Shown here: positions 745 to 55,033 of the stretch, piece by piece
Numbering within the stretch: position 1 is the first letter of the stretch
Layout of the letters: every line of letters starts with the position of its first letter
NCBI GenBank assembly: GCA_052034865.1
Contig: JBPOIC010000009.1
Coordinates: forward strand, 2,016-66,015
Length of the DNA stretch: 64,000 nt
Reading direction: 5' to 3'
Origin: Myxococcota bacterium
GTDB lineage: Bacteria; UBA10199; JADFYH01
The notes under the pieces: generated by a model
Seen by the model: the letters and a program-made list of their open reading frames with translations, nothing else
Database searches by the model: none
Told to the model about the DNA's origin: nothing
Made by a program: the position numbers and the translations under genes

Positions 745-1128
745 ATGTACCAACAGGTTTCATCCTATACCAATATGATGGCTGAGAAGTTTTTGCATGA
801 GTCACCTGAGAATTTGATGGTGATGCTTTATGAAGGAATGATTACCCGCATTCGTCGCGGCCGTGAATTTTACAAGGCAGGCCAGCTGGTTCGAGCCCGT
901 GAGTCTTCAATGCAGGCGAGTCGAATCGCAAGCGCCCTCATGGATAACCTTAATTTTGAAGAAGGTGGAGAAACTGTTCGGAACCTGGAAAGACTTTATG
1001 CCTACGTGATTTCGGAAGTTTCAGCTTCGTGCATTAGTCAGGATCCTTCCCCCCACTATCAGAATATTCTTTCTGTGCTGGAGACCTTGTGTGGGAGTTG
1101 GAAAGAATTGTCAGGTCGATCCAAATGA
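745..1128 (+). CDS. fliS: Flagellar export chaperone FliS
   Basis: 127 aa, ATG preceded by AGGAGG. About 125 aa, helical, position after fliD, FliS-like N-terminal region (YTNMMAEKFLHESPENLMVMLYEGMI). Confidence 0.75.
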   Translation: MYQQVSSYTNMMAEKFLHESPENLMVMLYEGMITRIRRGREFYKAGQLVRARESSMQASRIASALMDNLNFEEGGETVRNLERLYAYVISEVSASCISQDPSPHYQNILSVLETLCGSWKELSGRSK

Positions 1129-1520
1129 AAAACGCACTTTCCCATTTTGATGAGAAAGGGGTCCAGAATCTGATGGAGCTGATGGAATTTTACTATTCTC
1201 TTGGACTTCAGACCCTGGCAGACCTTCAGTACACACACTCCGATGAGGCCCTCGGCCAATGTAAAAAGCTCGAGGCCATTTCCTCCCAGTATATTGGAAT
1301 GATGCAGAATGTTTCGTGGGCGGAATGTGTTCCAAATCCAACGATTAAAAGGAAATTCTTCGATCAGCTTCAAAAGAATGTCGATATGATGAGATCTTTG
1401 CAAGGATTGCTCGAAGAAAAACTTTACGAAGTTCAGAAGATTTTAAACAAGCTTCCTGCGGCTGCCCGTTTCCCAAACGACGAGTGGTCAGCAGAAAGCT
1501 CCTATCAGGCAAGCCTATGA
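1125..1520 (+). CDS. Hypothetical helical protein, possibly a FliT-like flagellar chaperone
   Basis: Internal ATG at 1125 overlaps the fliS stop (ATGA). About 131 aa, predicted helical, acidic. FliT identity is inferred from its position after fliS only. Confidence 0.4.
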   Translation: MKNALSHFDEKGVQNLMELMEFYYSLGLQTLADLQYTHSDEALGQCKKLEAISSQYIGMMQNVSWAECVPNPTIKRKFFDQLQKNVDMMRSLQGLLEEKLYEVQKILNKLPAAARFPNDEWSAESSYQASL

Positions 1521-2056
1521 TCCCGGGAGCCCCTCTTCAAAATCATGAGGAGGAAAATTATTTCAAGGTTCTTGGAGAGATTTATCTCTACGTTGAAGAT
1601 TATCCTGACTCCGAAAACATTCATTTGTCGCAGGGCCTTCCTGAATCGGGTGATCCGATTGAGCTTAGACTCATGAACTTTCAGGCCAGGCTGCTCTATA
1701 ACAATCCAGAACACAGCAAGGATCTCATCGAACTTGCCCGTATTCTCGAGATGATTCACAAGGCAAAAGATCTGACAAAACTCCCCCAGGTAAGGTTGCA
1801 ATCGGTTTTGATCAGTGCGGGAGATTTGGAATATTTAAGTCACGAATACCTTCCGGTTGGAAAAAGGGTTTTATCCCACATGAGTTTTCCGGATTATCCC
1901 TACGAATCCATCAGTGTTGCCGCTGAAGTGATTCATTGCCAGCTCGCACGCCATCCAAAACCTCTTTATGAGGTAGCTCTGGGCTTTCAGGAAATCCCCG
2001 AGAATTATCGGGAAATGATCATCAAGTTCGTCAATCAGATCCAGCGACGAAAGTGA
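1517..2056 (+). CDS. Hypothetical protein of unknown function (co-transcribed with fliS)
   Basis: Internal ATG at 1517 overlaps the upstream stop (ATGA), about 179 aa. No motif recognised. Confidence 0.45.
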   Translation: MIPGAPLQNHEEENYFKVLGEIYLYVEDYPDSENIHLSQGLPESGDPIELRLMNFQARLLYNNPEHSKDLIELARILEMIHKAKDLTKLPQVRLQSVLISAGDLEYLSHEYLPVGKRVLSHMSFPDYPYESISVAAEVIHCQLARHPKPLYEVALGFQEIPENYREMIIKFVNQIQRRK

Positions 2057-2169: not shown

Positions 2170-3705
2170 TTAATGCTGAATGGATTCCAGAAGAGAGAGG
2201 TTTGTCAGGGGAAATGAAATAAAACCGTCCAGAAGCGAGGTTAGGCTATTCCTGTAAGGTTCCTTTGATTTGTCAGGATGACTCTGGATTCCCAGGATTG
2301 GAATGCGTTTTCCTGCCTTGCGCTGATATTTTCGGATTTCAAGCATCATTTCGTCTTCATCCGTGGGAACATCTTCCGGACGAATCAGAATCAGGTCAAA
2401 CTCTTCCTTGCCAAGATGTGAAAAAAGCAATTCGGATGAGGTTGCCTGGACATAGGTGTGGCCGTAGGTATTCAGGGTTTGAAGGGCAGAGTGTGGGCTT
2501 TTTGATTTTTCAAAAATGAGAATGTGGAGCTTTGCTTCTTCTTCATTCAAGAAATGACGGGTAATGAGAGGGAGTGAATGATTTGGATGAAAGCGATGAT
2601 TCAGAAGATACTGGAAGGTATCGTAGATTTCAGTTGGATAAAGCGGTTTGCTGAAGTAACCCTGAATTCCTGCCTCCTGACAGCGTTTCGCATCTCCCCT
2701 TTCCGGTTGCGAAGTCATCAAAACGGAATATGTTTCTGAAAATCGGTTTGTTCGTAACCATTTGGCAATCCATTCAAAAGCGGATGAAGGTGAAAGATTT
2801 TTTTCAATCAGAATAAAGTCCAGGCGAAGATCGGTGTTCTTAATAAAAACTTCCGCATCGGATTCATTTCCCGCTGTATGAACTCCCATTCCCCAGCTTT
2901 CCATAATTTTTTTCAGACGATTCAAATGATACGGATCGGATTCAAGAATCATCACTTGAAGGTTTTCCAGTGGGTAGGTGTTCAAAATCTCCTGATGAGA
3001 AGGATGGGCTTCAAAGCGAATCGGAAAGGTAAAAGAAAAAGTTTCACCTTCATCTGTATGTGTGTGTGTCAAAGCCCCTCCCAACAGAACAAGAAGTTTC
3101 TGAGCCAAAAGAAACTGAAGATCTCTAAAGTAAGATCCTGAGCCCTGGAGCCCACTCAGGATACTGTCAGGTGCGGTTTTCAGCAAAACCTCTAACACAA
3201 GATGGTTGTCATTTTTACATTTGACTTCAAGGTTTCCAGAAATATCGGGCTGCGAGGCAGAGATAAGAAAACCCCTGAGCAGGTCTTCAAATATCTGTTT
3301 GAAGCGGGCAGGACTTCCGACAAGGGTATCAGGAACTTCCGTGGAAATCAGGAAGCGAAAATTTTTGTGTAGCCTTTCTGCTTCTGAGTGGAGGTGATTT
3401 AAAATCGTTGAAAGGGATTTACGCAGACTGAAGGAAATCTGCTCAGGTGATATTTTATCCGATTCAATCTGACCGATATCCATCATCGAACGGGTAAGTT
3501 GGGTGAGATGGTCGAGGATTTGCCGAATCGAAAGACGTTCTTCTTCTGTCAGTCTCTGGTATCCGTTTTTTTCTTCTGTCAGTGCATTCGCAAGAAATGA
3601 AAGCCCTTCGTGAATTTCACTGGCGAACTGAAACACCAGCTTTTCGGACAGATTTCCGTTGAGGCGTGATAGCTTTTCAGATTTTTGAAAGTTTTCCGGA
3701 TGCAT
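2170..3705 (-). CDS. Histidine-kinase-like protein with a degenerate ATPase region and two receiver-like domains lacking the canonical phospho-acceptor Asp (putative pseudokinase / phosphorelay component)
   Basis: H-box-like SEIHEGLSFL near the N-terminus (His32) and a HisKA/HATPase-like core (G2-like FLLAQKLLVLLGGALTHTH...GETFSFTFP). N-box Asn and G1 DxGxG are not evident. REC1 (VMILESD...DFILIEKNLSP...VLMTSQ...FSKPL) has E at the phospho-Asp position. REC2 (ILIFEKSKS...DLILIRPED) has R there. No TM or sensor domain. Lies immediately downstream of the sigma-54 EBP gene on the same strand. Confidence 0.55.
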   Translation of the reverse strand: MHPENFQKSEKLSRLNGNLSEKLVFQFASEIHEGLSFLANALTEEKNGYQRLTEEERLSIRQILDHLTQLTRSMMDIGQIESDKISPEQISFSLRKSLSTILNHLHSEAERLHKNFRFLISTEVPDTLVGSPARFKQIFEDLLRGFLISASQPDISGNLEVKCKNDNHLVLEVLLKTAPDSILSGLQGSGSYFRDLQFLLAQKLLVLLGGALTHTHTDEGETFSFTFPIRFEAHPSHQEILNTYPLENLQVMILESDPYHLNRLKKIMESWGMGVHTAGNESDAEVFIKNTDLRLDFILIEKNLSPSSAFEWIAKWLRTNRFSETYSVLMTSQPERGDAKRCQEAGIQGYFSKPLYPTEIYDTFQYLLNHRFHPNHSLPLITRHFLNEEEAKLHILIFEKSKSPHSALQTLNTYGHTYVQATSSELLFSHLGKEEFDLILIRPEDVPTDEDEMMLEIRKYQRKAGKRIPILGIQSHPDKSKEPYRNSLTSLLDGFISFPLTNLSLLESIQH

Positions 3706-3808
3706 AATGGAATAAGTATGTAAGAGATTATTTTAAAAACACCAGACTCATCAGAATCAAAAGAAACGGAATTTTGCTTCCTGTTGCTTTAAAGAGCAGA
3801 TCGTAAAG

Positions 3809-5299
3809 TTAAGGTAAGATCGAAAATTGTTTTTCATCCTCAAAATCACCTTCTTCCGGAAGCGTGATTCCTGCCGGCAAAACGAGTCCCTCTTCACGAT
3901 AGGCCTTTAATTTATTTCGTAAGGTTCGCACGCTAATTCCCAAAGACTGGGAAGCCCGCACTCGGTTTCCTTTATGAATTTCCAGGGCTCGGTATATCAT
4001 CTGACGTTCAATTTCCTTGATGCTTGTCATGGGGAGCTCTTCAGGGGCGGCTTCTCGGGGAGCGACGGTTAAGGGAGGAGATTCCAATTCGGTATCATCG
4101 AACCAGATATGATCAATGGTATCTCCATGAGTCAGATAAGCGGTGCGTGTGATGATGTTTTCCAGCTCGCGGACATTTCCGGGCCAGGAATAACGGCTCA
4201 GCTGCTGAATCGCGGCAGAACTTAAGGTCATCTCACGATTGATATTCTGCAGGTTCAGGCGATTGAGAATGTGTTTTGCAAGAATGGAAACATCTTCAAT
4301 TCTTTCCCGAAGGGGAGGGATGCGAACCGAGATCACGTTCAGTCGATAAAAGAGATCTTCTCGGAACTGTCTGTTACGCACGGACTCTTTAAGATCACGG
4401 TTCGTTGTTGCAATCAATCGGACATCCAGCTGAATTTTCTGATGTCCTCCAACACGGTACAATTCTTTTTCCTGAATGACTCGAAGCAGTTTGGCCTGCA
4501 GCAGGGGATCCATTTCACTTACTTCATCAAGAAGCAGGGTTCCTTTTTGGGCCAGCTCAAATTTACCGATGTGTTTTGTGAGCGCTCCCGTAAAAGATCC
4601 TTTTTCATAACCAAAAAGCTCAGACTCCAGAAGTGTGGCAGGTATGGAGGCACAGTTGATCCCCACAAAAGGCTGATTTCTTCGTCGGGAAAGCTGATGC
4701 AGGGTTTGAGCAAACATCTCCTTTCCGACACCTGACTCTCCAAGAATCATCACTGTGATGTCACTATCCGCAATATGATTCAAGTACCCGATCGCTTTTT
4801 TCATCGCCGGGTGAGCTTCTGCACTGGGAAGGGATCGCAGATCACAATATTTGTTTTCTGTTTTTTCACTTTCGGGATTTTTTCTTTCTGAGAGAAAGTT
4901 CTGTATCAGTGTTTCAAACTGTTCTTCAGAAAAGGGCTTCAGTATTGGAGAGATGTTTCTGGATTGCGGAATGAGCTCAAGGTCAGCGCTGTCTTCAGGA
5001 TATAAAGTGAGAATAATTTTAAGCTGAGGATATTTTGAAATGAGTTGATAGGTGAAATCCGAAGACTTCGTTTTGATAAGATCGAAATCCAGAATGAGCA
5101 GATCGGGCTCTTCATATTGAAGAAGTGTTTCAATATTGGTCAGATCATTCGTTTTGAGGATGGTATGCGGATTTTTTTCCAGAAAGGAAAGCATCACATG
5201 ACGCATGGCTTTCTGGCTTTCAGCTACGAGAATCTTCAAGAGACATTCCTCCTTAAAGCCCAGGAATTTTTCACTGGATCGTTGATAGGAAATTCGCAA
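3809..5299 (-). CDS. Sigma-54-dependent response regulator (NtrC family; FlrC/FleR/FlbD-like flagellar master activator)
   Basis: N-terminal receiver (LKILVAES...DLLILDFDL), AAA+ sigma-54 activation domain with Walker A GESGVGKE and the GAFTGA-type loop (EKGSFTGA), ESELFGYEKG motif, and a C-terminal Fis-type HTH (RASQSLGISVRTLRNKLK). Confidence 0.85.
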   Translation of the reverse strand: MRISYQRSSEKFLGFKEECLLKILVAESQKAMRHVMLSFLEKNPHTILKTNDLTNIETLLQYEEPDLLILDFDLIKTKSSDFTYQLISKYPQLKIILTLYPEDSADLELIPQSRNISPILKPFSEEQFETLIQNFLSERKNPESEKTENKYCDLRSLPSAEAHPAMKKAIGYLNHIADSDITVMILGESGVGKEMFAQTLHQLSRRRNQPFVGINCASIPATLLESELFGYEKGSFTGALTKHIGKFELAQKGTLLLDEVSEMDPLLQAKLLRVIQEKELYRVGGHQKIQLDVRLIATTNRDLKESVRNRQFREDLFYRLNVISVRIPPLRERIEDVSILAKHILNRLNLQNINREMTLSSAAIQQLSRYSWPGNVRELENIITRTAYLTHGDTIDHIWFDDTELESPPLTVAPREAAPEELPMTSIKEIERQMIYRALEIHKGNRVRASQSLGISVRTLRNKLKAYREEGLVLPAGITLPEEGDFEDEKQFSILP

Positions 5300-5541: not shown

Positions 5542-7815
5542 TTAGAGGGATTTATCTTCAGGGCTTAAAAATTCAACTTGCCCGAGCAGTTCAATTATTT
5601 GCTGATAGGAAGTTCCTGCAACAGGTGCGATCGCAGGATCAGGATGATCCTGATATTTTTTCCAGAGTGCGAGGGCTGTTTCGGTTTCATGTTTTTGCAG
5701 ATAGGCATCCACCAAAATCATCCGGCTGCGCATTCGGTCAGGGAACTCAGGATCAAGCTTTTGAAGCTCTTCATATACATTCAGAACTTCATCATAGCGC
5801 CTGTCGAGAGCCAGTAAATAAATCCTTTCATCCATTGCCTTGATCTGCCAGGAGCGGATGATGCTTTGGGTTTCAGTATTTCCGCCGATCTGGGCTGTTT
5901 GCAGAGGAAGCCAGGAAAGAATCTGCAAGGCACGATTCATTTGCCCGGACATCTGCGCACAACGGGATGCCTGTAGAGAGTAGCGAAAAAGGTCCTCTCC
6001 CGTGATTCCCAGCTCGGAGAGTTTTTCAAAATCAGAAACGCATTTGGAATAGTTCTCATGAAGAATTGCCTGAGCGGCATGAGTCAGGTGGTAAAGTTTT
6101 CTTGCTTCGGGATCTTCCGGAAGATCTGGCACAAGTTTTAAGGTCGATTCGAGGAGATCGTTTTCTCCAATAAGGGCATAGGCGCGGGCCAGTTTCAGAA
6201 GTAAAAGTTTTTTCTCGGAATCCGGTATTTCCTTTTCAAAAAGAAGGCGCTGGTAAAGTCGAACAGCAGAAGTTTCCATGCTGGTTTCCAGATAGGCATC
6301 TCCCGCTTTTACAAGCAGCTCGCTTTTATTTGGCATGTAGGGAATCAGCAGACGGTAGCGATCAGCCAGATCAAGAAACTCCAGATATTTTCTTTCGTTA
6401 CGAAATGCTTCATATTTTTTCAGCAAGAGTTCCTGAGTGAAAAAACCTGCTTCTTTCAGAAGCGATTCTTCTTCCGGCCCACTTTTTTCTCTCATTCTCT
6501 GGATGAGATCCAGTCGACCCAAAACTTCATCCGTTTTTCCGAGTGCCTCCTCAAAAAAGGCAGTCAGTAAAAGAAATTCCAATTTTTCTGCATCAGGAAG
6601 CTCTTCAGAATCGAAAGTAGATGTGAGTTTTTCAAGGGCTTGAGGATAGGAAGATGAGATTTTTTCAGTCGCGATAATGCGAGCCCACAGGAGCAGGGCG
6701 TTTTTTGAGAGAGGATGTGGATCTCCATTCGCCAACTGAAAAAGTCTGGAAGCGGAAGCGGAGCGGTTTTTGTTTTCATGAACATCGATTTCCAGCAATC
6801 GGTATTCAATGTGACCCAGCGCATCCTGTGGCAGTGAGCTGTGTTGGAGCCCTGAAAAGATCTCCATTGATTTTTCGAAATTGCCTATCTGAAAAAGAGC
6901 CTCGGCATAATAGAGACTGGAATAGGGAGCGAGGATACTGTCACTTGTGGAAAGAAAGTGACCCATTTTTTCATACCAATCCACAACTTCCTGAAATTTT
7001 CCTTCCCAAAATAAAGTGTCTCCAAATCGCTGTGCCAGGTGGGGGGTAAGTTCTTCTGTATTCAGAAAGGTTGCAAGCTTCCAGAAATAATCTTCTCCAC
7101 GAACATAACGCCCCCGTTGAAAGTAGATCTCCAGAATGAGTGATTCAAAAAGCCGTGTCATGGGGGGCTCTTTTAAAGATTGAATTTCCTGACGGTAAGC
7201 GATTTTGAGGGCCTCCTGAAACCATCTGAGTTCCAGTAGTGAAACCGAAAGTCCGTAACTACCCGCGAGGGCGTATTTCGAAGTCGGATAGTGGCCCAGG
7301 GCTTTCCAGTAGGCATTCGTGGCACTGAGAATTTTTCCGCGTTCATGGGGAGCGGTGATGGCCAGTTTCAAGTCTGCAAGCCAGTAAAGTTTTTCTTCAG
7401 CCTGAGGGACATTTTCCGATTTCAGTTCCTGCTGAAGCTCATCAATCTTTTTTTTGTATTCCCTGATCTGTCGCGGATTGGGTGTCCAGCTGAAGGGAAA
7501 TGGTTTTGTCTGCAGGGCATCATAGGCAAGGGTGGGAATAGTAGGTCTCAGATTTTCTTTTGCCTTGGGTAAATTCCTTGCCAGATAAAATTCTCGTGAA
7601 GGAGAGATGGAAGAGAATTCTTTTAAGAACTTTTTGTTGCCTGTTTCCTGGGGCAATGAAAGTGGGAGGGATTCAGCAGTAGTCGAATGACTCTCCTGCT
7701 TTTCATTTGCAGAAGCAGAAGTCAGGCCAAATCCCATTAGGATCAGTACAAATACGCAAATATAAAGATATCTGAAAAATCCAAAAAAAATTTTCACGCA
7801 TTCTTTCTGTGTCAA
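5542..7815 (-). CDS. Large TPR-repeat protein with an N-terminal signal/anchor segment
   Basis: 757 aa. Hydrophobic N-terminus (IFFGFFRYLYICVFVLILMGFGLTSASA), then many helical W/Y/L/A-rich repeats typical of TPR/Sel1 arrays. The track start is TTG; an in-frame GTG 18 nt downstream is an alternative. Confidence 0.55.
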   Translation of the reverse strand: MTQKECVKIFFGFFRYLYICVFVLILMGFGLTSASANEKQESHSTTAESLPLSLPQETGNKKFLKEFSSISPSREFYLARNLPKAKENLRPTIPTLAYDALQTKPFPFSWTPNPRQIREYKKKIDELQQELKSENVPQAEEKLYWLADLKLAITAPHERGKILSATNAYWKALGHYPTSKYALAGSYGLSVSLLELRWFQEALKIAYRQEIQSLKEPPMTRLFESLILEIYFQRGRYVRGEDYFWKLATFLNTEELTPHLAQRFGDTLFWEGKFQEVVDWYEKMGHFLSTSDSILAPYSSLYYAEALFQIGNFEKSMEIFSGLQHSSLPQDALGHIEYRLLEIDVHENKNRSASASRLFQLANGDPHPLSKNALLLWARIIATEKISSSYPQALEKLTSTFDSEELPDAEKLEFLLLTAFFEEALGKTDEVLGRLDLIQRMREKSGPEEESLLKEAGFFTQELLLKKYEAFRNERKYLEFLDLADRYRLLIPYMPNKSELLVKAGDAYLETSMETSAVRLYQRLLFEKEIPDSEKKLLLLKLARAYALIGENDLLESTLKLVPDLPEDPEARKLYHLTHAAQAILHENYSKCVSDFEKLSELGITGEDLFRYSLQASRCAQMSGQMNRALQILSWLPLQTAQIGGNTETQSIIRSWQIKAMDERIYLLALDRRYDEVLNVYEELQKLDPEFPDRMRSRMILVDAYLQKHETETALALWKKYQDHPDPAIAPVAGTSYQQIIELLGQVEFLSPEDKSL

Positions 7816-7851: not shown

Positions 7852-8472
7852 TCAAATTTCTGTCGAGATTCGATTCATGATTTTGGAGACGTATTTTTTG
7901 GTTTCTGAATATGGAGGAATACCTTCATATTTTTTTACACTTCCAGGCCCAGCATTATAGGCAGCCAGCGCAAGTTTTAAATCCTGATCAAATGAATCTA
8001 GCATCTTTCTCAAATAGCGTGCCCCCCCGTGGACATTTTCCTGAATATCAAAAATATTTTTGACGCCCATCTCCCTGGCGGTTCCAGGCATCAATTGTGT
8101 GAGGCCCTTGGCTCCAGCAGAAGAAACTGCATTCGGGTTATAATTTGATTCGGTGTGAACCAGTGCATTCAGAACCTTTGATGGAATCTGGAATTCTTTG
8201 GCCGCCTTTTCGATGGCCTCCTGAATTTCCTCCTTAAAACTTTTGGGTGTTGGATCTTTAGAGAGAGTCGATGCGAAAGAATTTTTGGATGATTCTGGAT
8301 TCTTTGCGATGGGAATCTGAGGTACAGAGGGCTTGCGCACTGTTTGCGCAGGAAGTGCATAGTCCCAATAGTCGCGAATTGTCATTGCCGTTTTTGGAAG
8401 AGAATTTGAAGATGCAGAAAACATGGTTTCCCCCTGTTGATTGGAAGATATGGAAAGCAAGCGGGGTGCCAA
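7852..8472 (-). CDS. Lytic transglycosylase (SLT domain), likely flagellum-associated (SltF-like)
   Basis: SLT catalytic motifs TESNYNP...AGAKGLTQLMPGTA...AYNAGPG. Signal-like N-terminus. Located at the head of the flgF operon region. Confidence 0.7.
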   Translation of the reverse strand: MAPRLLSISSNQQGETMFSASSNSLPKTAMTIRDYWDYALPAQTVRKPSVPQIPIAKNPESSKNSFASTLSKDPTPKSFKEEIQEAIEKAAKEFQIPSKVLNALVHTESNYNPNAVSSAGAKGLTQLMPGTAREMGVKNIFDIQENVHGGARYLRKMLDSFDQDLKLALAAYNAGPGSVKKYEGIPPYSETKKYVSKIMNRISTEI

Positions 8473-8772
8473 CTGATATTTTTTCTTCTTAACCTGTTCA
8501 CCTTACAATTCTATTCTCGCCTTAAGATATCGTGAGAACAGGCATTTCTGTTTTTTTATTGTGGATTTCTGCTTTGGAAATCACAAGGCAGGGATTAAAA
8601 CTCCTGCATTCCTTCAGAGGAAATTCTTTCCGTCCTGTTCCTGAAGCGGTAAATTTGACCTGTCTTCTCTTCCCGCCATTGGAAATCCCTCTTTCGTTTT
8701 CTTTATTCTGATTTCAAAAATAAAACTGGGATTTTAGTGAGTTAGAGGCATGTTTTTTTCAAGCTGCTTCTT

Positions 8773-8788
8773 TGGTCCTGCTTTTGCA
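8773..8788 (+). promoter_or_regulatory. Sigma-54 (-24/-12) promoter upstream of flgF
   Basis: TGGtcC-tgctt-TTGCA has exactly the TGGCAC-N5-TTGCW spacing. It sits about 33 nt upstream of the flgF ATG, and an AGGAGG RBS lies between them. Confidence 0.5.
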
Positions 8789-20001: not shown

Positions 20002-20730
20002 TTAAACAATCGTTTTGGTATGGCGTCCCAGAATAAAGGCCTCTGCAGCGGCGACTCCAACGGAAGCGCCCCGCCAGTTGGCCAGCATCTGAACTGCCTT
20101 GAGGGATCGGGGATGAGGCCAGGGCTTCATTTCGCTGGAATAAGCTCTCAAGGCTTTGAGCTTTAATGGAAGGGTTTTGGTGATGTCGTGAAACCACTGG
20201 GGCGTAAAAGCAGGTGCACTCTGGGCGGTTTGAGATTCCGTGCTGGAAGGAATTTCAAAAAACAAAAGGGTTTCCCAGGAAGAATTTGGCAAAGGGCGTG
20301 CTGCTGTAACGACCGCCTCGTGGGTTTTTCGGTGATCAATATTTAAATCGCCCGAATGATGGGTATAGAGAACATGCGGTTTGATTCGGTCCAGAGTCGA
20401 TTCAACAATTTTAATGATATCGAGCAGTGATACCGAATCCATCCGATTATCAGGAAGGGATTCGACTTTCAGGGAACGGACTCCCAAAATCTGATTGGCA
20501 CGGGTAGCCGCCTTAAGCAGGGCTCCCAGCTCTTTTTTTCTTGAATTCGGATTGCGTGTACGATCCCGACTGGTAATCCCTTCAGCAAGGATTAAGACAT
20601 GGACTTCATCTCCGTTCAAGGCATGATGAGCAATACTTCCTCCACAACCCAAGACTTCGTCGTCTGGATGCGCAGCCACCACCAAAACCCGCTTTGAAGA
20701 TTTCCTTTTTTTCGATAGGCTTGCTTTCAT
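20002..20730 (-). CDS. PIG-L/LmbE-family N-acetylsugar deacetylase
   Basis: Zinc-binding signature VLVVAAHPDDEVLGCGG and HxxH-type region of the LmbE family. Confidence 0.7.
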   Translation of the reverse strand: MKASLSKKRKSSKRVLVVAAHPDDEVLGCGGSIAHHALNGDEVHVLILAEGITSRDRTRNPNSRKKELGALLKAATRANQILGVRSLKVESLPDNRMDSVSLLDIIKIVESTLDRIKPHVLYTHHSGDLNIDHRKTHEAVVTAARPLPNSSWETLLFFEIPSSTESQTAQSAPAFTPQWFHDITKTLPLKLKALRAYSSEMKPWPHPRSLKAVQMLANWRGASVGVAAAEAFILGRHTKTIV

Positions 20731-20763
20731 AATTTCATCCTTATCATTGAAAAGGAGCGCCCG

Positions 20764-21495
20764 ATGAAAACCGTTCTGATCAACCAGGCCCGCATGACTT
20801 CCACCCGGCTCCCCGGGAAGGTATTGAAAGAAGTTCTGGGAAAACCGCTTCTGGAATATCAGATCGAGCGCATTCGCCGAATTCGGGAAATAGATGATTT
20901 CGTGATTGCAACAACCACCTTGCCCAGCGATGACCCGATTGTATCCCTCTGTAAAAAACTGAAGGTAAAATATTTCCGCGGATCGGAAACCGATGTTTTA
21001 AGCCGCTATGCTCAGGTTGCAGAGCGTGAACAGGCGGATTCGGTGGTTCGTGTAACTTCGGATTGTCCTTTGCTGGATCCGGAAATTGTGGATGACGTTC
21101 TCCGGTTTTTCAAAATTCATTTTCCAAAATATGCCTACGTTTCGAATGTTGATCCCAGAACCTTTCCTCGGGGGATGGACACCGAAGTCTTTACCGCTCA
21201 GGCACTTCAGGAATCTTTTCGCGAAGCAATCGATCCTTATGAAAAAGAACATGTGACTCTTTTTATTCATAGGCATCCCGAGCGTTACCTGCGCGCAGGT
21301 GTCACCGATACACAGAATCACAGTCAGCATCGCTGGACCGTCGATACGCCGGAAGATTTTCAGCTCATTGAAAAAATACTCGAAGCCCTCTATCCCAAAA
21401 ATCCTTTCTTTACTCTCAAAGATCTGCTCGCTTTATTGCAAGAGCATCCGGAATGGCAGCAGATCAACGCCCATGTGGAGCAAAAGAAATATTGA
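20764..21495 (+). CDS. pseF: Nonulosonic acid cytidylyltransferase (CMP-pseudaminic acid synthetase PseF-like, CTP_transf_3 family)
   Basis: N-terminal MKTVLINQARMTSTRLPGKVLKEVLGKPLL typical of acylneuraminate cytidylyltransferases. Adjacent to the pse genes. Confidence 0.65.
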   Translation: MKTVLINQARMTSTRLPGKVLKEVLGKPLLEYQIERIRRIREIDDFVIATTTLPSDDPIVSLCKKLKVKYFRGSETDVLSRYAQVAEREQADSVVRVTSDCPLLDPEIVDDVLRFFKIHFPKYAYVSNVDPRTFPRGMDTEVFTAQALQESFREAIDPYEKEHVTLFIHRHPERYLRAGVTDTQNHSQHRWTVDTPEDFQLIEKILEALYPKNPFFTLKDLLALLQEHPEWQQINAHVEQKKY

Positions 21496-22531
21496 ATTCT
21501 TCATGGATGAACTCTGCGAGTCGCTGACTTCCCAACCCATCGATGAGCTTTGGTCCGTTTTCTGACATCTGTCTGAGATTCGCAGAATCGGCAATCAACT
21601 CTTTCATCTTCTCGATGATTTCAGCATCTTCGATCTGATCATACATTCCTAAAAAAATACCGCAGTTTTTCTTTTGGATTTCCTCTGCCGTTCCGCGCTG
21701 GTTGGTGTGTGTTGCCAGGATCACCAGAGGTCTTCCCAGATAGAGGATCTCCTGTGCCGTCAGGCCTCCCGCTGTGATGACGATTTGGGATTTTTTGAGC
21801 AGAATGGGTAAGTCGTCAGGGTAGAGCAAAAGCTGAATGCGTGGATTTTCATCGGCCAGACGCTGAAGCTTGCCGATCGACTTGCACAGAGGTCCGGCAA
21901 TGAGCTGGATCTTTTTCAGAGAATCCAGTGCGAGAAGGAGACGCCCAACCCTTAAAGTCTGTTCTTCAGGGTCGGAGCCTCCAAAAGTCGCAGTAACTTC
22001 ATCTGCCGCCGAGGAAAAATCCGGAGAGTTTTTTATCTCGCTGGTGCTTTTTATAAAATCGTGACGCAGGGGAAAAAAGGCTGGGCCAATTTTTGAGTAA
22101 GGACGGCTGGGTCTTGGATAAATGGTTTTGGTGGCAGCGATGCTGCCATTGATGTAGCCGGTAACGGGGTAGCTGACCTTTTCTCCATCATCATCGAAAG
22201 CAAGGATGGGAATTCGTGATTGCTTGCGAATGTGTGCGTAGTAATCGCGTGAAAGACGATAAGAATCGGTGATCAAAACCGAGCCTTTTCTTTTTTTAAT
22301 CAACTGGAAAATTTCTTCTGCTTCCTCACTGCCACCATCCTGGGAAACCAGATGCTGAACAAAAAAAGGTTTTGGGGCGAGGAGATTTTCGACGCTATCG
22401 GCAGATAAGATGAATGTAATCTGAATATTTGGGGTCGATTCCCAGAGGGCTCGGGCAAAAGTATAGCAGCGTGATAAATGCCCGAATCCTACTTCTGCAT
22501 TGGCCTCTGTATGAAAAAAGATTTCCCCCAT
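21464..22531 (-). CDS. pseG: UDP-2,4-diacetamido-2,4,6-trideoxy-beta-L-altropyranose hydrolase PseG-like (GT28-C fold)
   Basis: N-terminal GFGHLSRCYTFARAL motif characteristic of PseG. C-terminal glycosyltransferase-28-like region. Last gene of the minus-strand pse operon. Confidence 0.6.
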   Translation of the reverse strand: MGEIFFHTEANAEVGFGHLSRCYTFARALWESTPNIQITFILSADSVENLLAPKPFFVQHLVSQDGGSEEAEEIFQLIKKRKGSVLITDSYRLSRDYYAHIRKQSRIPILAFDDDGEKVSYPVTGYINGSIAATKTIYPRPSRPYSKIGPAFFPLRHDFIKSTSEIKNSPDFSSAADEVTATFGGSDPEEQTLRVGRLLLALDSLKKIQLIAGPLCKSIGKLQRLADENPRIQLLLYPDDLPILLKKSQIVITAGGLTAQEILYLGRPLVILATHTNQRGTAEEIQKKNCGIFLGMYDQIEDAEIIEKMKELIADSANLRQMSENGPKLIDGLGSQRLAEFIHEEFNISFAPHGR

Positions 22532-22534
22532 AGA

Positions 22535-23230
22535 TTAATCCTTACGGCATAAAAAGTTCCAGGTCGCTAAACGAAAATTCTCGTGAGGAATAAGAGTCTC
22601 GATGATTTTGTGTTCCAGACGTTCAAAGACAAAAGAAGAAAACAGGTCCTGAAGATGAGGCTGATCTGAAAAGTGGACAGCCCCCACACTCGAAAAGGGG
22701 CCCGATGTAAAATCTTTTCGGGTATTGGAATCAAGATGGGTCTGTGCTTTTTCGAATTCTGAATGATGGGTCGAAAACCAGTCAATTCCAAGATATTTTC
22801 CACCCGGATTGAGATGTGCGTGGCAGTTTGCCAGGGTTTTACGAATTGCTGCGGTCGTGTTGTGAGTGAGAGAGGAACGATCGACAATCAGGTCAAAGGT
22901 AAAATCGAAAGGAATTCCTTCGGTAAAATCGCCCGCGACAAGCTGATTTTTAAGATCCGGAAAGCGGTCTTTCAGTTTTTCAACGATGTGAGGACTTCCT
23001 TCGATGGCGTAGTATCGAACCCCAAGATTTTTAAAAAAAGAAATATTCGCCCCTGCCCCGCAACCCAGCTCCAAAACAGTGGTCTCTGCACTCAAAGGTC
23101 TGGCAAAGCGCATCACAAAGCTCACCACCTCCGACCATGGATAAATGCTCATCTGTTGCGAGGCCTGATAAATCTGATCCCATTCTTTGGAAAAACCCAT
23201 GGAAGTCTCCTTCAGGAATTTTAAATCCAT
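22535..23230 (-). CDS. Class I SAM-dependent methyltransferase
   Basis: Motif I VLELGCGAGANISFF and downstream acidic loop. 231 aa. Confidence 0.6.
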   Translation of the reverse strand: MDLKFLKETSMGFSKEWDQIYQASQQMSIYPWSEVVSFVMRFARPLSAETTVLELGCGAGANISFFKNLGVRYYAIEGSPHIVEKLKDRFPDLKNQLVAGDFTEGIPFDFTFDLIVDRSSLTHNTTAAIRKTLANCHAHLNPGGKYLGIDWFSTHHSEFEKAQTHLDSNTRKDFTSGPFSSVGAVHFSDQPHLQDLFSSFVFERLEHKIIETLIPHENFRLATWNFLCRKD

Positions 23231-23233
23231 TGT

Positions 23234-23917
23234 TTACAACTGAATGAACGAGATATTGGGCTCGAATTCAAAACATTCGATGCGGTGCTGATTCAGACTC
23301 AGCTTTTCAAGCAGGGCCTGCGTTTCGCCCGGCCAGTCCGGATTGTTGATTTCATCGAAGGCCAAAATAGCGCCTTTGGGCATAAGAGGCAGAAAATATT
23401 TGAGAGCGGTTTGGGTAGGTTCGTAGATATCAAAATCCAGATAAAGAAGGGATACCAGAAGGTGTTTGTTTTTTTCTACATAAGCAGGGATTGTTTGATT
23501 GGCATCTCCTTTGACCAGTTCGATTTTGGGGATGTGATTGATGAAACGATTGGTATCGAATTCGGCAATTACGGCCTGCATTTCATCATAGACCGGATAG
23601 CTTTCCCCAAACATGCCTTCTTTGACCTCCGGATTCCTTCGGTCAATCGCCTGCACACTGGGAAATCCTTCAAAGGTATCAAAACCAATAATCTTTCGAT
23701 GATAATTATAGGGTTCCAGAGTTGCGGATATCTTGGCCCAGCTCATCACTCCCCCTCCCTGATGAACTCCGCATTCGACGATGCTTCCCTTGATGGGTAG
23801 CTGGCGCCTGAAAATTTCATAGTAGGCCATGAAACGGGCCAGCGTCTGCCGTCGGACATACTTGGAAAAGTTGGCAAGCTTCTTATCAGTGGGACAGGTG
23901 GATTGATCAAAAATCAT
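23234..23917 (-). CDS. TylF/MycF-family (macrocin-type) SAM-dependent O-methyltransferase
   Basis: GSIVECGVHQGGGVMSW motif typical of the TylF/Methyltransf_24 sugar O-methyltransferases. Confidence 0.55.
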   Translation of the reverse strand: MIFDQSTCPTDKKLANFSKYVRRQTLARFMAYYEIFRRQLPIKGSIVECGVHQGGGVMSWAKISATLEPYNYHRKIIGFDTFEGFPSVQAIDRRNPEVKEGMFGESYPVYDEMQAVIAEFDTNRFINHIPKIELVKGDANQTIPAYVEKNKHLLVSLLYLDFDIYEPTQTALKYFLPLMPKGAILAFDEINNPDWPGETQALLEKLSLNQHRIECFEFEPNISFIQL

Positions 23918-24651
23918 ATTGTCTCCTGTTTTAGCCAGGCTGCTGGCGCTTTTTTCAGATAACGAATATTTCCCTCAAAAAGAATTTCTGAACTGCGAGA
24001 ACCAGCATTGAACAAAAGATCCAGTGCGCTCATGTAAGGAAGAAATTCACCATGGAGCTGAGAATAGGTTGGATGATGATAGTCCTGAAAATAAACCTCG
24101 ATGTTCTTTTCATGAAACGAAGCGACATCGGCATAATCTTTTCCTTGTGCTCCAAAGATGTAATGTGTCGCTTTGAGTTGCACACACATATCCAAAACCA
24201 GATCTGATTTTTTCCCCTGAAAATTAAAATCTGAGGCCTTGACGATGGGGCGCTCCAGACCGAAGCATTTTAAAAAGTAACTCAATATTTCCAGATTAAG
24301 ATCCGAAAGAAAGATCAGATCCGTTCGGCGCAAAATCTGATCAAGAGCTGGAAAATATTGATGAAAAAAGGGCGCTTTCTGATAGGCAAGCTGGATGGAT
24401 TTTAAGTGCTTGCGCCGCCAGTCTCCAGAAATGATTTTCACCTCTGAAATGATTTTTTCAAAGTGATTTTTTGATTCGACAGGAACGGTCAGCCAGATTT
24501 CTCCAGTATTGGTTTTGATCTTGTTGCGGTTGTTAAAATCTTTCGTTTGATATTGCACGATATCAAACCAGCAGAATTGATCGGCCAGGGCGATTTTATG
24601 AATCAGTCCCAGCCACGGCAAATAAACCGGTTGATGTGCGGTAAGGATCAT
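23914..24651 (-). CDS. WbqC-like family protein (uncharacterised sugar-modification protein)
   Basis: N-terminal MILTAHQPVYLPWLGLIHKIALADQF resembles the WbqC family start (ISQPTFLPWLGYF). Translationally coupled to neighbours (4-nt overlaps). Confidence 0.45.
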   Translation of the reverse strand: MILTAHQPVYLPWLGLIHKIALADQFCWFDIVQYQTKDFNNRNKIKTNTGEIWLTVPVESKNHFEKIISEVKIISGDWRRKHLKSIQLAYQKAPFFHQYFPALDQILRRTDLIFLSDLNLEILSYFLKCFGLERPIVKASDFNFQGKKSDLVLDMCVQLKATHYIFGAQGKDYADVASFHEKNIEVYFQDYHHPTYSQLHGEFLPYMSALDLLFNAGSRSSEILFEGNIRYLKKAPAAWLKQETI

Positions 24652-25658
24652 AATTGATTCAGGGCTTTAATGATGGTTTCCACCTCACGGGGGGTGAGTG
24701 AAGGGTAAATCGGTACCGAGACCGTGGATCTTGAAAAATGCAGAGCCCTGGGAAAAGGCTTTGCCAGAAGCTCCCAATCTTCGATTGGAACAATGGCCTG
24801 AATTTTTTTTTGTTTGAGTCTCTGCAGAACCTTTTCGGGCCGGGATGTCCGGAAAACAGCCCGATATCGAACTGGAGATATTTCGATTTTCTCTTCACGT
24901 ACCCACGCAAGGTCTGTTTTCAGGTACGCTTTAAAAATCTGTTCACGTTTTTTTAAAAAACGGGGGAGTTGTTTGAGCTGGGTGCGACCGACTGCCGCCT
25001 GCAAATCTGTCATCTGAAAATTGAAACGGGGTCTGTCTTTTCGTTGCATATCAAAAAGCCGGTAGTCGCGTATCCATTCAATAGGAGCTTTGTGACGCGA
25101 AACCACTGCCCCTCCCTGTCCTCCGCTCGTCATCAATTTCGTCGCATAAAATGAAAAAACTCCCAGATCTCCCTGAAGCCCCGCATGTACTCCGTTTACC
25201 TTTGCCCCGAGGGCCTGAGCGCAGTCCTCTATCACGGAAATTCCATTCAGTTCGGACAACTCCGTTGGAATTCCAAAAAGGTGAGGCACAATTGCAATCT
25301 CAGGAGATTTCTTTTCAAGCATTGCCAGATCAAGATTGGGTTGTGATTCAGCAATGTCCAGGAACACTTCTTTTCCTTGAGCCATGCGCACGGCATGGCG
25401 AAGCGCAGAACAGGCATAAACGGGCATTCCAATTTTTTTATGCGAAGCATTTAAGGCTAAAAGTGACAGATAAAGCGCTGCAGTTCCGCTTGAAACTGCA
25501 ACGGCATGTCCTCTTGGAATTTTCAAAAAATCGCACAAGTCATTCTCAAAGCCCTCCACTTCATTTCCCTGGGCCAGCCATCCCGAGCGCAGAACCCGAC
25601 AGGCGGCCCTTTCTTCGTAAATTCCAATTGTAAGACGGTTATGAGGAATCAGATTCAA
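24648..25658 (-). CDS. DegT/DnrJ/EryC1/StrS-family PLP-dependent sugar aminotransferase (second copy, short form)
   Basis: AVSSGTAALYLSLLAL and the Lys-containing FSFYATKLMTSGGQGG motif. 336 aa. Confidence 0.65.
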   Translation of the reverse strand: MNLIPHNRLTIGIYEERAACRVLRSGWLAQGNEVEGFENDLCDFLKIPRGHAVAVSSGTAALYLSLLALNASHKKIGMPVYACSALRHAVRMAQGKEVFLDIAESQPNLDLAMLEKKSPEIAIVPHLFGIPTELSELNGISVIEDCAQALGAKVNGVHAGLQGDLGVFSFYATKLMTSGGQGGAVVSRHKAPIEWIRDYRLFDMQRKDRPRFNFQMTDLQAAVGRTQLKQLPRFLKKREQIFKAYLKTDLAWVREEKIEISPVRYRAVFRTSRPEKVLQRLKQKKIQAIVPIEDWELLAKPFPRALHFSRSTVSVPIYPSLTPREVETIIKALNQL

Positions 25659-26125
25659 ATTTTCCCCTTGGATTTTTTTTTGCTTAATATTTGCTTTCGG
25701 TAATAGCCCGGTTTGAGCTGCATGGGATTTCCGATGACGAGAGAGTAAGGAGGAATGCGCACACCTTCGACAACGGTTCCTGCAGCCACGACACTGTGAT
25801 GACCGATGTGTGCCCCGCCTTTAATGACCGAATGGGATCCGACAAAAACAGATTTTCCCAGCACGATCGACTTGCGATCAATTTTATTCTGAAGTCCCAC
25901 ACATTTTTTGTGAGAGTCGGCACAGTTGATCGAGACGAATGAAGCGATATCGCACCCTTCTCCAATGACCACTTTGGACAGGTGTGCATTCACCTCTGAC
26001 ATTCCCCCAATATAAACATTTTTGCCGATGCGGGGTTTTCCATGGATCCAAACCAAAGGATGAAAACGGTTGGATGGAAAATCCAGATGCTTTTCAAATA
26101 GCTTCCTAAATTGCCTGGATGTCAT
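25655..26125 (-). CDS. Left-handed beta-helix (hexapeptide-repeat) sugar N-acetyltransferase (PglD/NeuD-like)
   Basis: Tandem hexapeptide repeats (IGKNVYIGGMSEVNAHLSKVVIGEGCDIASFVSI...VFVGSHSVIKGGAHIGHHSVVAAGTVV). Start chosen at the ATG overlapping the pseI stop (ATGA). Confidence 0.65.
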   Translation of the reverse strand: MTSRQFRKLFEKHLDFPSNRFHPLVWIHGKPRIGKNVYIGGMSEVNAHLSKVVIGEGCDIASFVSINCADSHKKCVGLQNKIDRKSIVLGKSVFVGSHSVIKGGAHIGHHSVVAAGTVVEGVRIPPYSLVIGNPMQLKPGYYRKQILSKKKSKGKI

Positions 26126-27174
26126 CCGAAATCTCCCCATGTCAGTGTCTGTCCTTTTGCGATGGGCTTTTGGGCCTGAAGACCGAGAATTTTTTCAAGC
26201 AGAGACGGAGGCAGCCCGCTTCCCGGGCGTCTTAAGGCCAGGTTTTCTTCTGAAAGCGCTTCTCCTGGCGGGATGTTTTTTAAGGCAACGATACTGCGTC
26301 GGGCCAGAATACGCATTTTTTCTTCTTCAGCGGTGGGTCGAATCTGCGCACATCCTAACATGCGAAAGGCCGTGCGAATGGAGTGTACCCAGTTTTTCAA
26401 TCCCTGTGGATCTTCAGAAAAGGCATGATCCGGACCTCGCAGGTCATGGCTTAGGGTAAAATGTTTTTCAAAAAAACATCCTCCCAAACTCACAGCGAGA
26501 GAAGAGGCCAATGGCCCTTCGGTATGATCAGAAAATCCGATGGGGATTTGAGGATAGGTCTGCTGGAGGGTTTTGATCTTAAGCAGATTCACATCCTGAA
26601 TGGGTGTTGGATATTGAGACGTACAGGCAAGAAGCAAAGTTGGATATCCTCGAAAAGTGCCAATCGCCTCGAGGGCCTGGTCGATTTCCGCAAGGGTTGC
26701 CATCCCGGAAGAAATAATCAGGGGAAGAGAGGTTTTTGCATAGTGTTTGAGCAGGGGAGTGTGGATCAAATCATCGGATCCAATCTTGATCGCACTGACG
26801 CCGACTTCGAGAAGGATTTTTAAATCACTGGGATTTTGGGGCGTGGAAAGGAAGACCAGTTTTTTTTCTTCGCAGCGTTTTTTAAGTTGAGGCCAGGCGG
26901 ATAAGGGCAATTCGCATCGCTTGAACATCGCATGCATGGATTCAGTGATTTCTTTTCCCTGGGAATGATAAGTCCACTTCAGATTTTGATCGGAAAGAAT
27001 TTCATCGGCCTGAAATGTCTGAAACTTTACGGCATCGACACCCGCATCATGAGCAATCTCGATCATCTCCAGGGCCTTTTCAATCTCTCCATTGTGATTG
27101 ATTCCGACCTCCGCGACGATAAAGGGAGGAAGCCCGTGCCCAATCTGCCGATCCTCAATTTTAACCCAACTCAT
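26122..27174 (-). CDS. pseI: N-acetylneuraminate-synthase-family enzyme (pseudaminic acid synthase PseI/NeuB-like)
   Basis: IGHGLPPFIVAEVGINHNGEIEKALEMIEIAHDAGVDAVKFQTF NeuB motif plus a C-terminal SAF domain. Start at the internal ATG (MSWVKIEDRQIG). Confidence 0.8.
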   Translation of the reverse strand: MSWVKIEDRQIGHGLPPFIVAEVGINHNGEIEKALEMIEIAHDAGVDAVKFQTFQADEILSDQNLKWTYHSQGKEITESMHAMFKRCELPLSAWPQLKKRCEEKKLVFLSTPQNPSDLKILLEVGVSAIKIGSDDLIHTPLLKHYAKTSLPLIISSGMATLAEIDQALEAIGTFRGYPTLLLACTSQYPTPIQDVNLLKIKTLQQTYPQIPIGFSDHTEGPLASSLAVSLGGCFFEKHFTLSHDLRGPDHAFSEDPQGLKNWVHSIRTAFRMLGCAQIRPTAEEEKMRILARRSIVALKNIPPGEALSEENLALRRPGSGLPPSLLEKILGLQAQKPIAKGQTLTWGDFG

Positions 27175-49605: not shown

Positions 49606-49731
49606 TGACCAAACTCTTCTGTTTTCTGGAATCTGAATTTGAATGCAACGCAATGAGGCATCCCTTCGGGAGCCATCAGCAAAAGATCTTCCTCAAAGGG
49701 ATTAAAACCCTTGAGTTGAAGGAGAGGCGGT

Positions 49732-54883: not shown

Positions 54884-55033
54884 AGAAACTTCTGAAGAAT
54901 TCCCATGGGCTAATACTCACTTAAACCACTGTCTGAGACCTCGCTGGAAGACTTCTTGCGATAAGCCCTTACGATTGGTTCTCGCGAGTCTCTTAGCTTG
55001 AGAGAGATCTCTTAAAAAAATGAATCGAGAAAG

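Follow-up and report, generated by a model that had tools for sequence, protein, structure and literature searches.

The window analysed here, a 64,000-nucleotide stretch of a Myxococcota bacterium contig (JBPOIC010000009.1, positions 2,016 to 66,015; assembly GCA_052034865.1), encodes among its flagellar genes a soluble 511-residue pseudo-histidine kinase, P0001 (2170..3705, minus strand). Profile alignments, Pfam, AlphaFold2 (AF2) modelling and Foldseek searches show it to be a decayed hybrid kinase of the ShkA type: the order of a dimerization and histidine phosphotransfer (DHp) domain, a catalytic and ATP-binding (CA) domain, a first pseudo-receiver (REC1), a linker and a second receiver (REC2) has been kept along with the fold, while the phosphorylation chemistry has been lost. 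As judged from its aligned residues, the protein has no acceptor His, no ATP-binding motifs, and neither an acceptor Asp nor a full active site in either receiver. The evidence strongly indicates that its gene is co-transcribed with those for a lytic transglycosylase (SLT), a protein with tetratricopeptide repeat (TPR)-like features and the only enhancer-binding protein (EBP) of the cluster from a conserved sigma-54 promoter, and that purifying selection has maintained the EBP-pseudokinase pair across a clade of uncultured bacteria. P0001 probably regulates by binding and not by phosphorylation.

A ShkA-type hybrid kinase without phosphorylation chemistry

The EBP and pseudokinase genes are consecutive minus-strand open reading frames (ORFs) within 2170-5299 of the window, in agreement with an initial annotation that had paired a sigma-54 activator with a kinase-like protein on the same strand. 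The identical P0001 protein is found on two independently assembled contigs, and it is therefore not an assembly artefact. No transmembrane segment is present (the maximum Kyte-Doolittle mean over 19 residues is 1.34), and Pfam recognizes one Response_reg domain only (residues 251-362, 34.1 bits), with HisKA and HATPase_c absent even at E<=1. The architecture emerges from an AF2 model built on a 55-sequence alignment, with a mean predicted local distance difference test score (pLDDT) of 80.9, in which a DHp hairpin, an alpha/beta domain and two receiver folds are recovered; it supersedes a model from a two-sequence alignment with a pLDDT of 53 and an unusable N-terminal half. Across the CA domain the pLDDT is 85-93 except in a remnant of the lid (residues 181-192), the sole disordered part of the alpha/beta domain. 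Foldseek ranks full-length ShkA (6qrj, E 3.6e-21) first among the structures of the PDB, with the GacS and RetS kinase regions next, and the Foldseek probability to ShkA, GacS, RetS and HK853 is 1.00. Further, the canonical sequence relatives of P0001 match the full chain of ShkA (E 3e-127); the genomic neighbourhoods of two of them, P0004 and P0006, are unrelated to flagella or EBPs.

Three profile alignments allow the catalytic positions to be placed. With a hidden Markov model (HMM) built on 53 canonical homologues, residues 59-143 and 199-510 are aligned at high posterior probability, and the H-box and the G1-G2 segment fall outside the alignment; hhalign of the degenerate family described below against twelve canonical hybrid kinases gives a probability of 100% (E 1.4e-79, 484 columns); and the family HMM matches ShkA 6qrj over its full length (E 2.4e-22). 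The DHp-like helical hairpin (aa 3-81; 3463..3699, minus strand; AF2 helices 3-43 and 54-81) bears an H-box remnant, FASEIHEGL, in which both hhalign and the family HMM put Ser29 (3619-3621) at the phospho-histidine, Glu30 at the Glu that follows it, and His32 (3610-3612), three residues further on, at the conserved Arg (His+3). The same register is apparent from the relatives, where FSHDLRKPLN in L090 and ILQDLRPPID in P0065 correspond to FASEIHEGLS in P0001. Since their His+3 column holds Arg, Lys or Arg, His32 is best read as a substituted arginine. The phospho-His column itself contains Lys, Arg or Gln in the relatives, with His kept in the L090 member only, and the acceptor position of P0001 is without His in every alignment register tried. 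The initial annotation had taken the segment EIHEGLSFL as an H-box; it is indeed the remnant of one, but its histidine stands at the His+3 Arg position and the acceptor is Ser29, and hence the kinase core is more degenerate than was then held. A different register, obtained by MAFFT alignment with single canonical kinases, sets SFLANALTEEK on FLANMSHEIR and replaces the histidine by Thr43. It was rejected, as the acceptor would then be the last residue of the first helix of the AF2 model, and as two profile methods and the family intermediates all give Ser29.

The CA (GHKL)-like alpha/beta domain (aa 88-232; 3010..3444, minus strand) is matched by Foldseek to the ShkA, GacS and RetS cores and has no nucleotide-binding motifs. 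Gly145 (3271-3273) occupies the place of the N-box Asn, being aligned to the Asn of GNAIKFT, and Thr177 that of the G1 Asp, with KTAPDS replacing DTGIGI; the remainder of G1 has been lost together with the F box, the G2 box and some 14 lid residues, GGTGLGL among them. Relative to a competent HisKA kinase, then, the DHp hairpin and the GHKL fold are retained, and the acceptor His, the N-box Asn and the G1, F, G2 and lid elements are missing.

The receivers have undergone a comparable loss. REC1 (aa 249-370; 2596..2961, minus strand) has Glu255-Ser256 at the acidic pair (DD), Glu301 (2803-2805) at the acceptor, and Thr331 and Lys353 at the remaining two positions; a phmmer search of the PDB pairs Glu301 with Asp53 of DivK, and the profiles pair it with the canonical acceptor. 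REC2 (aa 393-511; 2173..2529, minus strand) reads Glu399-Lys400, Arg442 (2380-2382), Gln474 and Phe498 at the equivalent sites. A receiver in which any one of DD, D, T/S or K is missing is defined as a pseudo-receiver (PMC12632262), a definition that covers both REC1 (ES/E/T/K) and REC2 (EK/R/Q/F). The strongest conservation lies elsewhere: the alpha4-beta5 region of REC1 bears a family-invariant RGDA..C...GI..Y..P motif, and the REC1-REC2 linker (aa 371-392; 2530..2595, minus strand) an invariant L-I-T-x-H-x-L-x-E (Leu380, Thr382, His384, Leu386 and Glu388) at the position of the DDR tether of ShkA.

These alignments bear out the by-eye register of the initial annotation, which had missed the N-box Asn and G1 and had read Glu and Arg at the two receiver acceptors; a profile alignment, set beforehand as the refuting test, revealed no acceptor Asp and no intact N, G1 or G2 box. 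The view of the protein as a pseudokinase and not a canonical FlrB is also sustained, every catalytic position tested having failed and six relatives displaying equal loss. However, the suggested role as a phosphotransfer scaffold has to be abandoned, because the absence of His and Asp from the acceptor positions makes the carriage of phosphate impossible. The idea of a phosphomimetic Glu is likewise weakened, as Glu occurs at the REC1 acceptor in two of the seven family members and is Gly, Thr or Asp in the others. The contrast once drawn with the flrB-flrC gene order is irrelevant to a protein that has no PAS domain, possesses two receivers and descends from the ShkA type.

ShkA itself serves here as the template for comparison. 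TacA is a sigma-54 activator. In Caulobacter crescentus ShkA signals to it through ShpA (PMC7010744), and is itself a soluble hybrid kinase without an N-terminal sensor, with His23, a phosphorylatable REC2 (Asp430) and activation by cyclic di-GMP (c-di-GMP; 10.1101/675454; PMC7010744). The REC1 of ShkA is a pseudo-receiver whose alpha4-beta5-alpha5 face binds c-di-GMP or, in the auto-inhibited state, the DDR motif of the linker (10.1101/675454). P0001 resembles ShkA in the lack of an N-terminal sensor, the acceptor helix near residue 20-30, the DHp-CA-pseudo-REC1-linker-REC2 order and a REC1 without the DD pair. Unlike P0001, which is without the His, Asn, G1, G2 and both acceptor Asp residues, ShkA is active; Arg442, accompanied by Lys400, Gln474 and Phe498, stands in P0001 where ShkA has the phosphorylatable Asp430, and in contrast to the ShkA relay no Hpt protein was found near P0001 among the window ORFs scanned.

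Linkage to a sigma-54 activator and conservation of the pair

The gene upstream of P0001 encodes an NtrC-family sigma-54 EBP. Its maximal ORF spans 3809-5299 (496 aa), and the start chosen by gene callers, a TTG at 5239, yields a 476-aa protein (3809..5239, minus strand) with an atypical receiver, an AAA+ domain and a Fis-type helix-turn-helix (HTH). Pfam detects Sigma54_activat (PF00158, 229 bits, 3e-68), AAA_lid_14 (PF25601) and HTH_8 (PF02954), with Response_reg at 28.8 bits falling slightly below its cut-off of 30.2. Inspection of the sequence (476-aa numbering) shows GESGVGKE at 167, GSFTGA at 214-219 (window approximately 4583-4600) and LLLDEV at 235, i.e., the Walker A/B motifs and GAFTGA-type loop which, with the C-terminal HTH, characterize NtrC-family EBPs. 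The initial annotation was right that the loop keeps its Phe and Thr, but the sequence is GSFTGA and not GAFTGA. This contact loop varies among the orthologues: the window copy has GSFTGA, L004 and L084 have GAFTGA, and L003, P0260 and P0266 have GAYTGS; the Phe-to-Tyr form of the GAFTGA loop is a rare natural variant. The top NCBIfam match is FlbD (369 bits against a cut-off of 750), FlgR reaching 276 against 750; with these cut-offs unmet, the EBP is not the equivalog of any named flagellar regulator. About 25 clusters of orthologues, at 47-58% identity, are set apart from generic NtrC/FlrC proteins (41-43%).

The receiver of the EBP is itself unusual, with Glu7-Ser8 replacing the DD pair and Asp51 and Lys101 being kept (active-site set ES/D/T/K). 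In every orthologue read the pair is [E/D]-[S/Q/A], the metal-binding second Asp never being present, and most conserve Asp51 and Lys101. Lacking the second Asp, this domain too is a pseudo-receiver under the definition cited above, and from its residues it may not be phosphorylated at all.

In loci with long flanks, a single strand carries the genes for the SLT, the TPR protein, the activator and the pseudokinase in this order, and the opposite strand downstream carries PilZ, an unknown gene, fliS and fliD. The window conforms to this pattern: the first gene of the operon encodes the lytic transglycosylase (7852..8424, minus strand; Pfam SLT on the called gene), whose position is unchanged across all related loci, and the second a 731-aa TPR-like protein with a hydrophobic N-terminus (5542..7737, minus strand; called gene), for which the TPR evidence comprises faint matches in orthologues only. 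Upstream, a divergent flgF-flgG-flgA-flgH-flgI cluster is shared by the window, L002, L004 and L089.

The divergent SLT/flgF intergenic region contains back-to-back sigma-54-type promoters (window 8456-8788; counterpart in L002 at 3650-3713). The site facing the operon, TGGCACCCCGCTTGCT (8456..8471, minus strand), is a -24/-12 promoter located about 32 nt upstream of the SLT start, heads the SLT-TPR-EBP-pseudokinase operon and is a perfect match to TGGCAC-N5-TTGCW, reading TGGCAC-N5-TTGCT; at the orthologous position the site is again perfect in L004 (3569-3584) and has one mismatch in L002 (3698-3713). On the other strand, TGGTCCTGCTTTTGCA (8773..8788, plus strand) lies upstream of flgF with two mismatches to the consensus. 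A near-identical variant, TGGTCCTGGCTTTGCA, is found upstream of flgF in L002, the form TGGTCC-N5-TTTGCA being common to the two loci, and the promoter before flgF is a likely target of the activator. Counted across the whole window, matches to the sigma-54 consensus are not enriched over shuffles, and for this reason the argument from the promoters rests on their position and conservation. The operon-heading promoter implies that the activator operon is itself sigma-54 dependent, through either autoregulation or a higher-tier activator.

The spacing between the two genes differs among loci. In the window it amounts to 103 bp (3706-3808), in which a scan for sigma-70 promoters and terminators located no site; the genes overlap in L003, L089 and L090, and are 7-25 nt apart in L084 and L004. 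Hence, translation of the window copy of the pseudokinase may be weaker or uncoupled.

The SLT gene and that for the protein of approximately 730-760 aa with faint TPR matches and a hydrophobic N-terminus are always co-operonic with the activator, including in L087 and L088, which are without the pseudokinase. This large protein, which matches no family with confidence, could itself be the real input to the activator.

An exhaustive HMM search over 1.84 billion representatives returned P0001 and P0017 first and then a smooth continuum of canonical hybrid kinases from 233 bits. Five degenerate representatives were recognized in it, namely P0001, P0017 and, among the short soluble matches, P0151, P0074 and P0065; walking downstream of the activator orthologues added two more, in L089 (377 aa) and L090 (520 aa), to give a family of seven. 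A word-index search with the family profile recovered only P0001 and P0017, and a contig profile search with a pattern around ERGDAALC was swamped by canonical hybrid kinases from Acidobacteriota and others, so much so that it missed even the known family loci. The pseudokinase directly follows the orthologous activator in six of the members, and the seventh is on a 2-kb contig. Pfam detects Response_reg in all seven, HisKA in three and HATPase_c in none (E<=0.1), and no member has the complete DD/D/T/K set in either receiver.

The members make up a decay series that runs from retention of the His to deletion of the DHp domain. At one end, the L090 protein keeps the His together with the Asp, Thr and Lys of REC1 and has a dead ATP site; the His is lost in P0065, and the His and the REC1 Asp are both lost in P0001, P0151 and P0074; at the other end, the entire DHp has disappeared from P0017 and L089, the hairpin being retained in the other five. 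Arg at the REC2 acceptor is confined to P0001. Approximately 37 columns are invariant across the family, and cluster in the first strand of the CA domain and the N-box helix (FSLR, PD.L.G.P), the alpha4-beta5 region of REC1 (RGDA..C...GI..Y..P), the REC1-REC2 linker (L.T.H.L.E) and the beta1 and beta3 strands of REC2. The ORFs are intact in all members. As synonymous sites are saturated (pS >= 0.75), dN/dS is not computable, and the proportions of nonsynonymous (pN) and synonymous (pS) differences are given instead: in the closest family pairs pN is 0.25-0.29 against a saturated pS of 0.77-0.80. With pN so far below pS, the family is under purifying selection and neutral decay is excluded. Protein change in the pseudokinase nevertheless proceeds at roughly double the rate seen in the activator (dN 0.30 versus 0.13).

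Proposed regulation by binding and the alternatives

The interpretation favoured here, with slightly more confidence than doubt, is that P0001, a non-catalytic descendant of a ShkA-type kinase, modulates the activator encoded next to it by binding or allosterically. It would act on the adjacent EBP without catalysis. Its best-conserved parts are the LITxH linker and, in REC1, the alpha4-beta5 face with RGDA...GIxxY; they occupy the places of the DDR tether and the c-di-GMP site of ShkA, and probably make up an intramolecular latch that has been retained and that a small ligand may open. Opening of the latch would expose REC2 or REC1 for contacts with the activator in the receiver-receiver or kinase-receiver style, and the expression of a class of flagellar genes would thereby be tuned without phosphotransfer. 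The latch is favoured because the invariant surfaces match the ligand and tether site of ShkA, and because the position of the tethering linker is kept. The proposal of the initial annotation that the pair provides a non-standard input to the flagellar sigma-54 cascade is reasonable in the light of the conserved operon linkage and the promoters, with the effect on the activator being deduced from that setting. A more far-reaching version is offered tentatively and with more doubt than conviction: a ShkA-type kinase would have been turned into a phosphorylation-free, ligand-gated partner of the EBP in which the latch alone still works, the receiver of the EBP would also have given up Asp phosphorylation, the two would constitute a phosphate-free flagellar two-component checkpoint, and the family members would record the route from kinase to scaffold.

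Several observations weigh against modulation of the activator by such a latch. The tie between the two proteins is one of synteny, and the modulation is read from genomic context. In the outgroup genomes GCA_040960315.1 and GCA_016210045.1, two more distant orthologues of the EBP occur in an SLT-TPR-activator arrangement followed directly by flgF, with no kinase-like gene between, which implies that the activator can work without the pseudokinase or that the partner is encoded elsewhere in those genomes. The ATG of the window pseudokinase is without an obvious Shine-Dalgarno sequence, and the divergence of the family is rapid, identity between subgroups being 26-29% for the pseudokinase as against 54-58% for the activator. 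In the two members that have lost the DHp, P0017 and L089, the maximal ORF begins inside the activator gene, and given the absence of this domain kinase-style docking through helix 1 is not the general mode. As for the ligand, the c-di-GMP contacts of ShkA are Arg324, Tyr338, Ile340, Arg344, Ser347 and Gln351, of which one or two are kept in P0001: Tyr338 corresponds to the invariant Tyr350, and Arg324 plausibly to the likewise invariant Arg336, an equivalence that hinges on the placement of a 2-residue gap. Arg344, Ser347 and Gln351 have been changed to Tyr356, Glu359 and Asp362, and the DDR tether is replaced by Thr382-Arg383-His384 of LITxH. With three of the six contacts different and the DDR replaced, c-di-GMP binding is not inferable.

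The same surface invites an explanation in which P0001 is a receptor for a small ligand such as c-di-GMP through a ShkA-like REC1 pocket, with the motor, the tail-to-tail PilZ protein or another regulator as its target. The face that binds c-di-GMP in ShkA carries Tyr350 and Arg336 as family-invariant residues, and every long locus with the pseudokinase has a PilZ-domain gene directly after it on the other strand; but the changed contacts and the absent DDR motif, the loss of RxxxR from the window PilZ homologue, and a pseudokinase gene that overlaps or is translationally coupled with that of the activator, and is not in an operon with PilZ, make it rather unlikely. A distinctly smaller probability attaches to the protein being an evolutionary relic, formerly the cognate hybrid kinase of the activator and now useless and on its way to loss. 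The graded decay from L090 through P0065, P0001, P0151 and P0074 to P0017 and L089, the fast evolution relative to the activator and the absence from beside it in two outgroups are what a relic would display. However, the ORFs have remained intact in seven lineages despite saturated synonymous sites, with a pN of 0.25-0.29 far under a pS of about 0.8, and the invariant columns, about 37 with RGDA, GI..Y..P and L.T.H.L.E among them, and the confidently predicted fold are at odds with uselessness.

Two further alternatives are less likely still. P0001 might control a genuine kinase elsewhere in the manner of RetS or DivL, via heterodimerization through the DHp or by binding the partner of that kinase, an option for which RetS kinase regions rank among the best sequence and fold matches and the DHp hairpin persists in five of seven members. 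This is judged very improbable, as the DHp is wholly missing from two members at an unchanged position in the locus, the window ORFs scanned yielded no kinase, and the protein lacks a periplasmic sensor. Least credible of all is a phosphorelay through non-canonical residues, whether by phosphorylation of His32 in trans or with Glu301 as a constitutive phosphomimetic 'on' state: His32-Glu33 does resemble the H-E dipeptide, one helical turn from the canonical site, and REC1 does keep Thr331 and Lys353, but His32 is at the conserved Arg (Arg, Lys or Arg in relatives), there is neither an ATP site nor an Asp at either acceptor, and Glu301 is shared by just two of the seven members.

Binding of the activator by a non-catalytic P0001, the reading preferred above, may be compared to several known systems, of which ShkA and RetS are the nearest structural and evolutionary precedents. 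RetS has the kinase-REC-REC layout and makes little use of its own phosphorylation chemistry, exerting its effect by binding to a different two-component protein. Its structures from Pseudomonas aeruginosa (6dk7/6dk8/7n0e), with a kinase core and two tandem receivers, are among the best sequence and fold matches; unlike RetS, a membrane protein with a periplasmic carbohydrate-binding sensor that acts on GacS via a DHp contact, P0001 is soluble, linked to an EBP and begins with the DHp, and whereas RetS uses its DHp, two members of the P0001 family have none. In NifL-NifA, a non-working kinase-like protein shares one operon with a sigma-54 activator and controls it by direct binding. This is perhaps the closest functional analogy for the pseudokinase-activator pair, the ground shared here being the co-operonic linkage. 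NifL differs in having PAS sensors, a GHKL domain that binds ADP and no receivers, nifL is the first of the two in its operon, and the sequence relationship extends to the kinase superfamily only; NifA has a GAF domain where the present EBP has a receiver. DivL of Caulobacter (4q20), also a fold match, has its acceptor His replaced (by Tyr) and signals by binding a response regulator, but it retains the CA domain, is anchored in the membrane, contains PAS domains and is devoid of C-terminal receivers.

The flagellar pairs FlrB/FleS/FlgS and FlrC/FleR/FlgR are comparable in that an NtrC-type flagellar activator is controlled by a partner encoded with the flagellar genes; these kinases differ in being active, lacking receivers, and being encoded upstream of or apart from the regulator. 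FlbD, the best NCBIfam match of the EBP, is controlled by a non-kinase partner, FliX, which is unrelated in sequence. Literature searches for a flagellar sigma-54 pseudokinase found nothing.

The flagellar locus and the wider significance

The remainder of the window makes up an almost complete flagellar regulon, in which flhF (SRP54-type GTPase) and fliA (sigma-28) are found at 48328-50523 and a flagellin glycosylation island at 20002-29435 and 50531-58182. The island encodes a PseB/PseC-like dehydratase and aminotransferase, a cytidylyltransferase, a PIG-L deacetylase, two Maf/MptE-like proteins, a TPR-glycosyltransferase fusion and a GT4 enzyme. A scan of window ORFs found no other kinase, Hpt domain, further EBP or rpoN, nor a second master EBP of the FleQ/FlrA type, and flhG was not identified; the top of the hierarchy is therefore encoded elsewhere or absent. 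An Rfam scan of the window gave no matches. At 59095-63984 (minus strand) is a 1629-aa ORF whose sole Pfam match is a partial amidase domain (residues 1257-1401).

Convergent with the pseudokinase gene, a 190-aa ORF (1484-2056, plus strand) is the orthologue of PilZ-domain proteins in L003, L004, L089 and L090. The window copy has E-NYF-K in place of the RxxxR motif for c-di-GMP and ISAGD in place of ISGSG, and Pfam no longer detects PilZ in it. From these changes it looks like a second signalling protein of the locus whose ligand or chemistry motif is gone. Between it and fliS is a 143-aa ORF (1089-1520, plus strand) with no Pfam match; a gene of 117-131 aa occupies this position in every related locus, and the product may be a FliT-like chaperone or another flagellar factor.

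Pseudo-histidine kinases and pseudo-receivers are already known, and nothing established is overturned by the present findings; what is new is the unusually complete loss of chemistry and the informative decay series. How such proteins are activated was called a mystery in a 2025 perspective (PMC12632262). The locus provides a compact natural case in which all three phospho-sites and the ATP site are gone while selection persists beside one candidate target. The relatives keep the intermediates, with the His kept, the His lost or the DHp deleted, from which it can be learned what a kinase fold does, and which of its surfaces stay, after its chemistry is lost. For the organisms themselves, it suggests that some uncultured lineages control classes of flagellar genes without a kinase of the FlrB/FleS/FlgS type or FliX.

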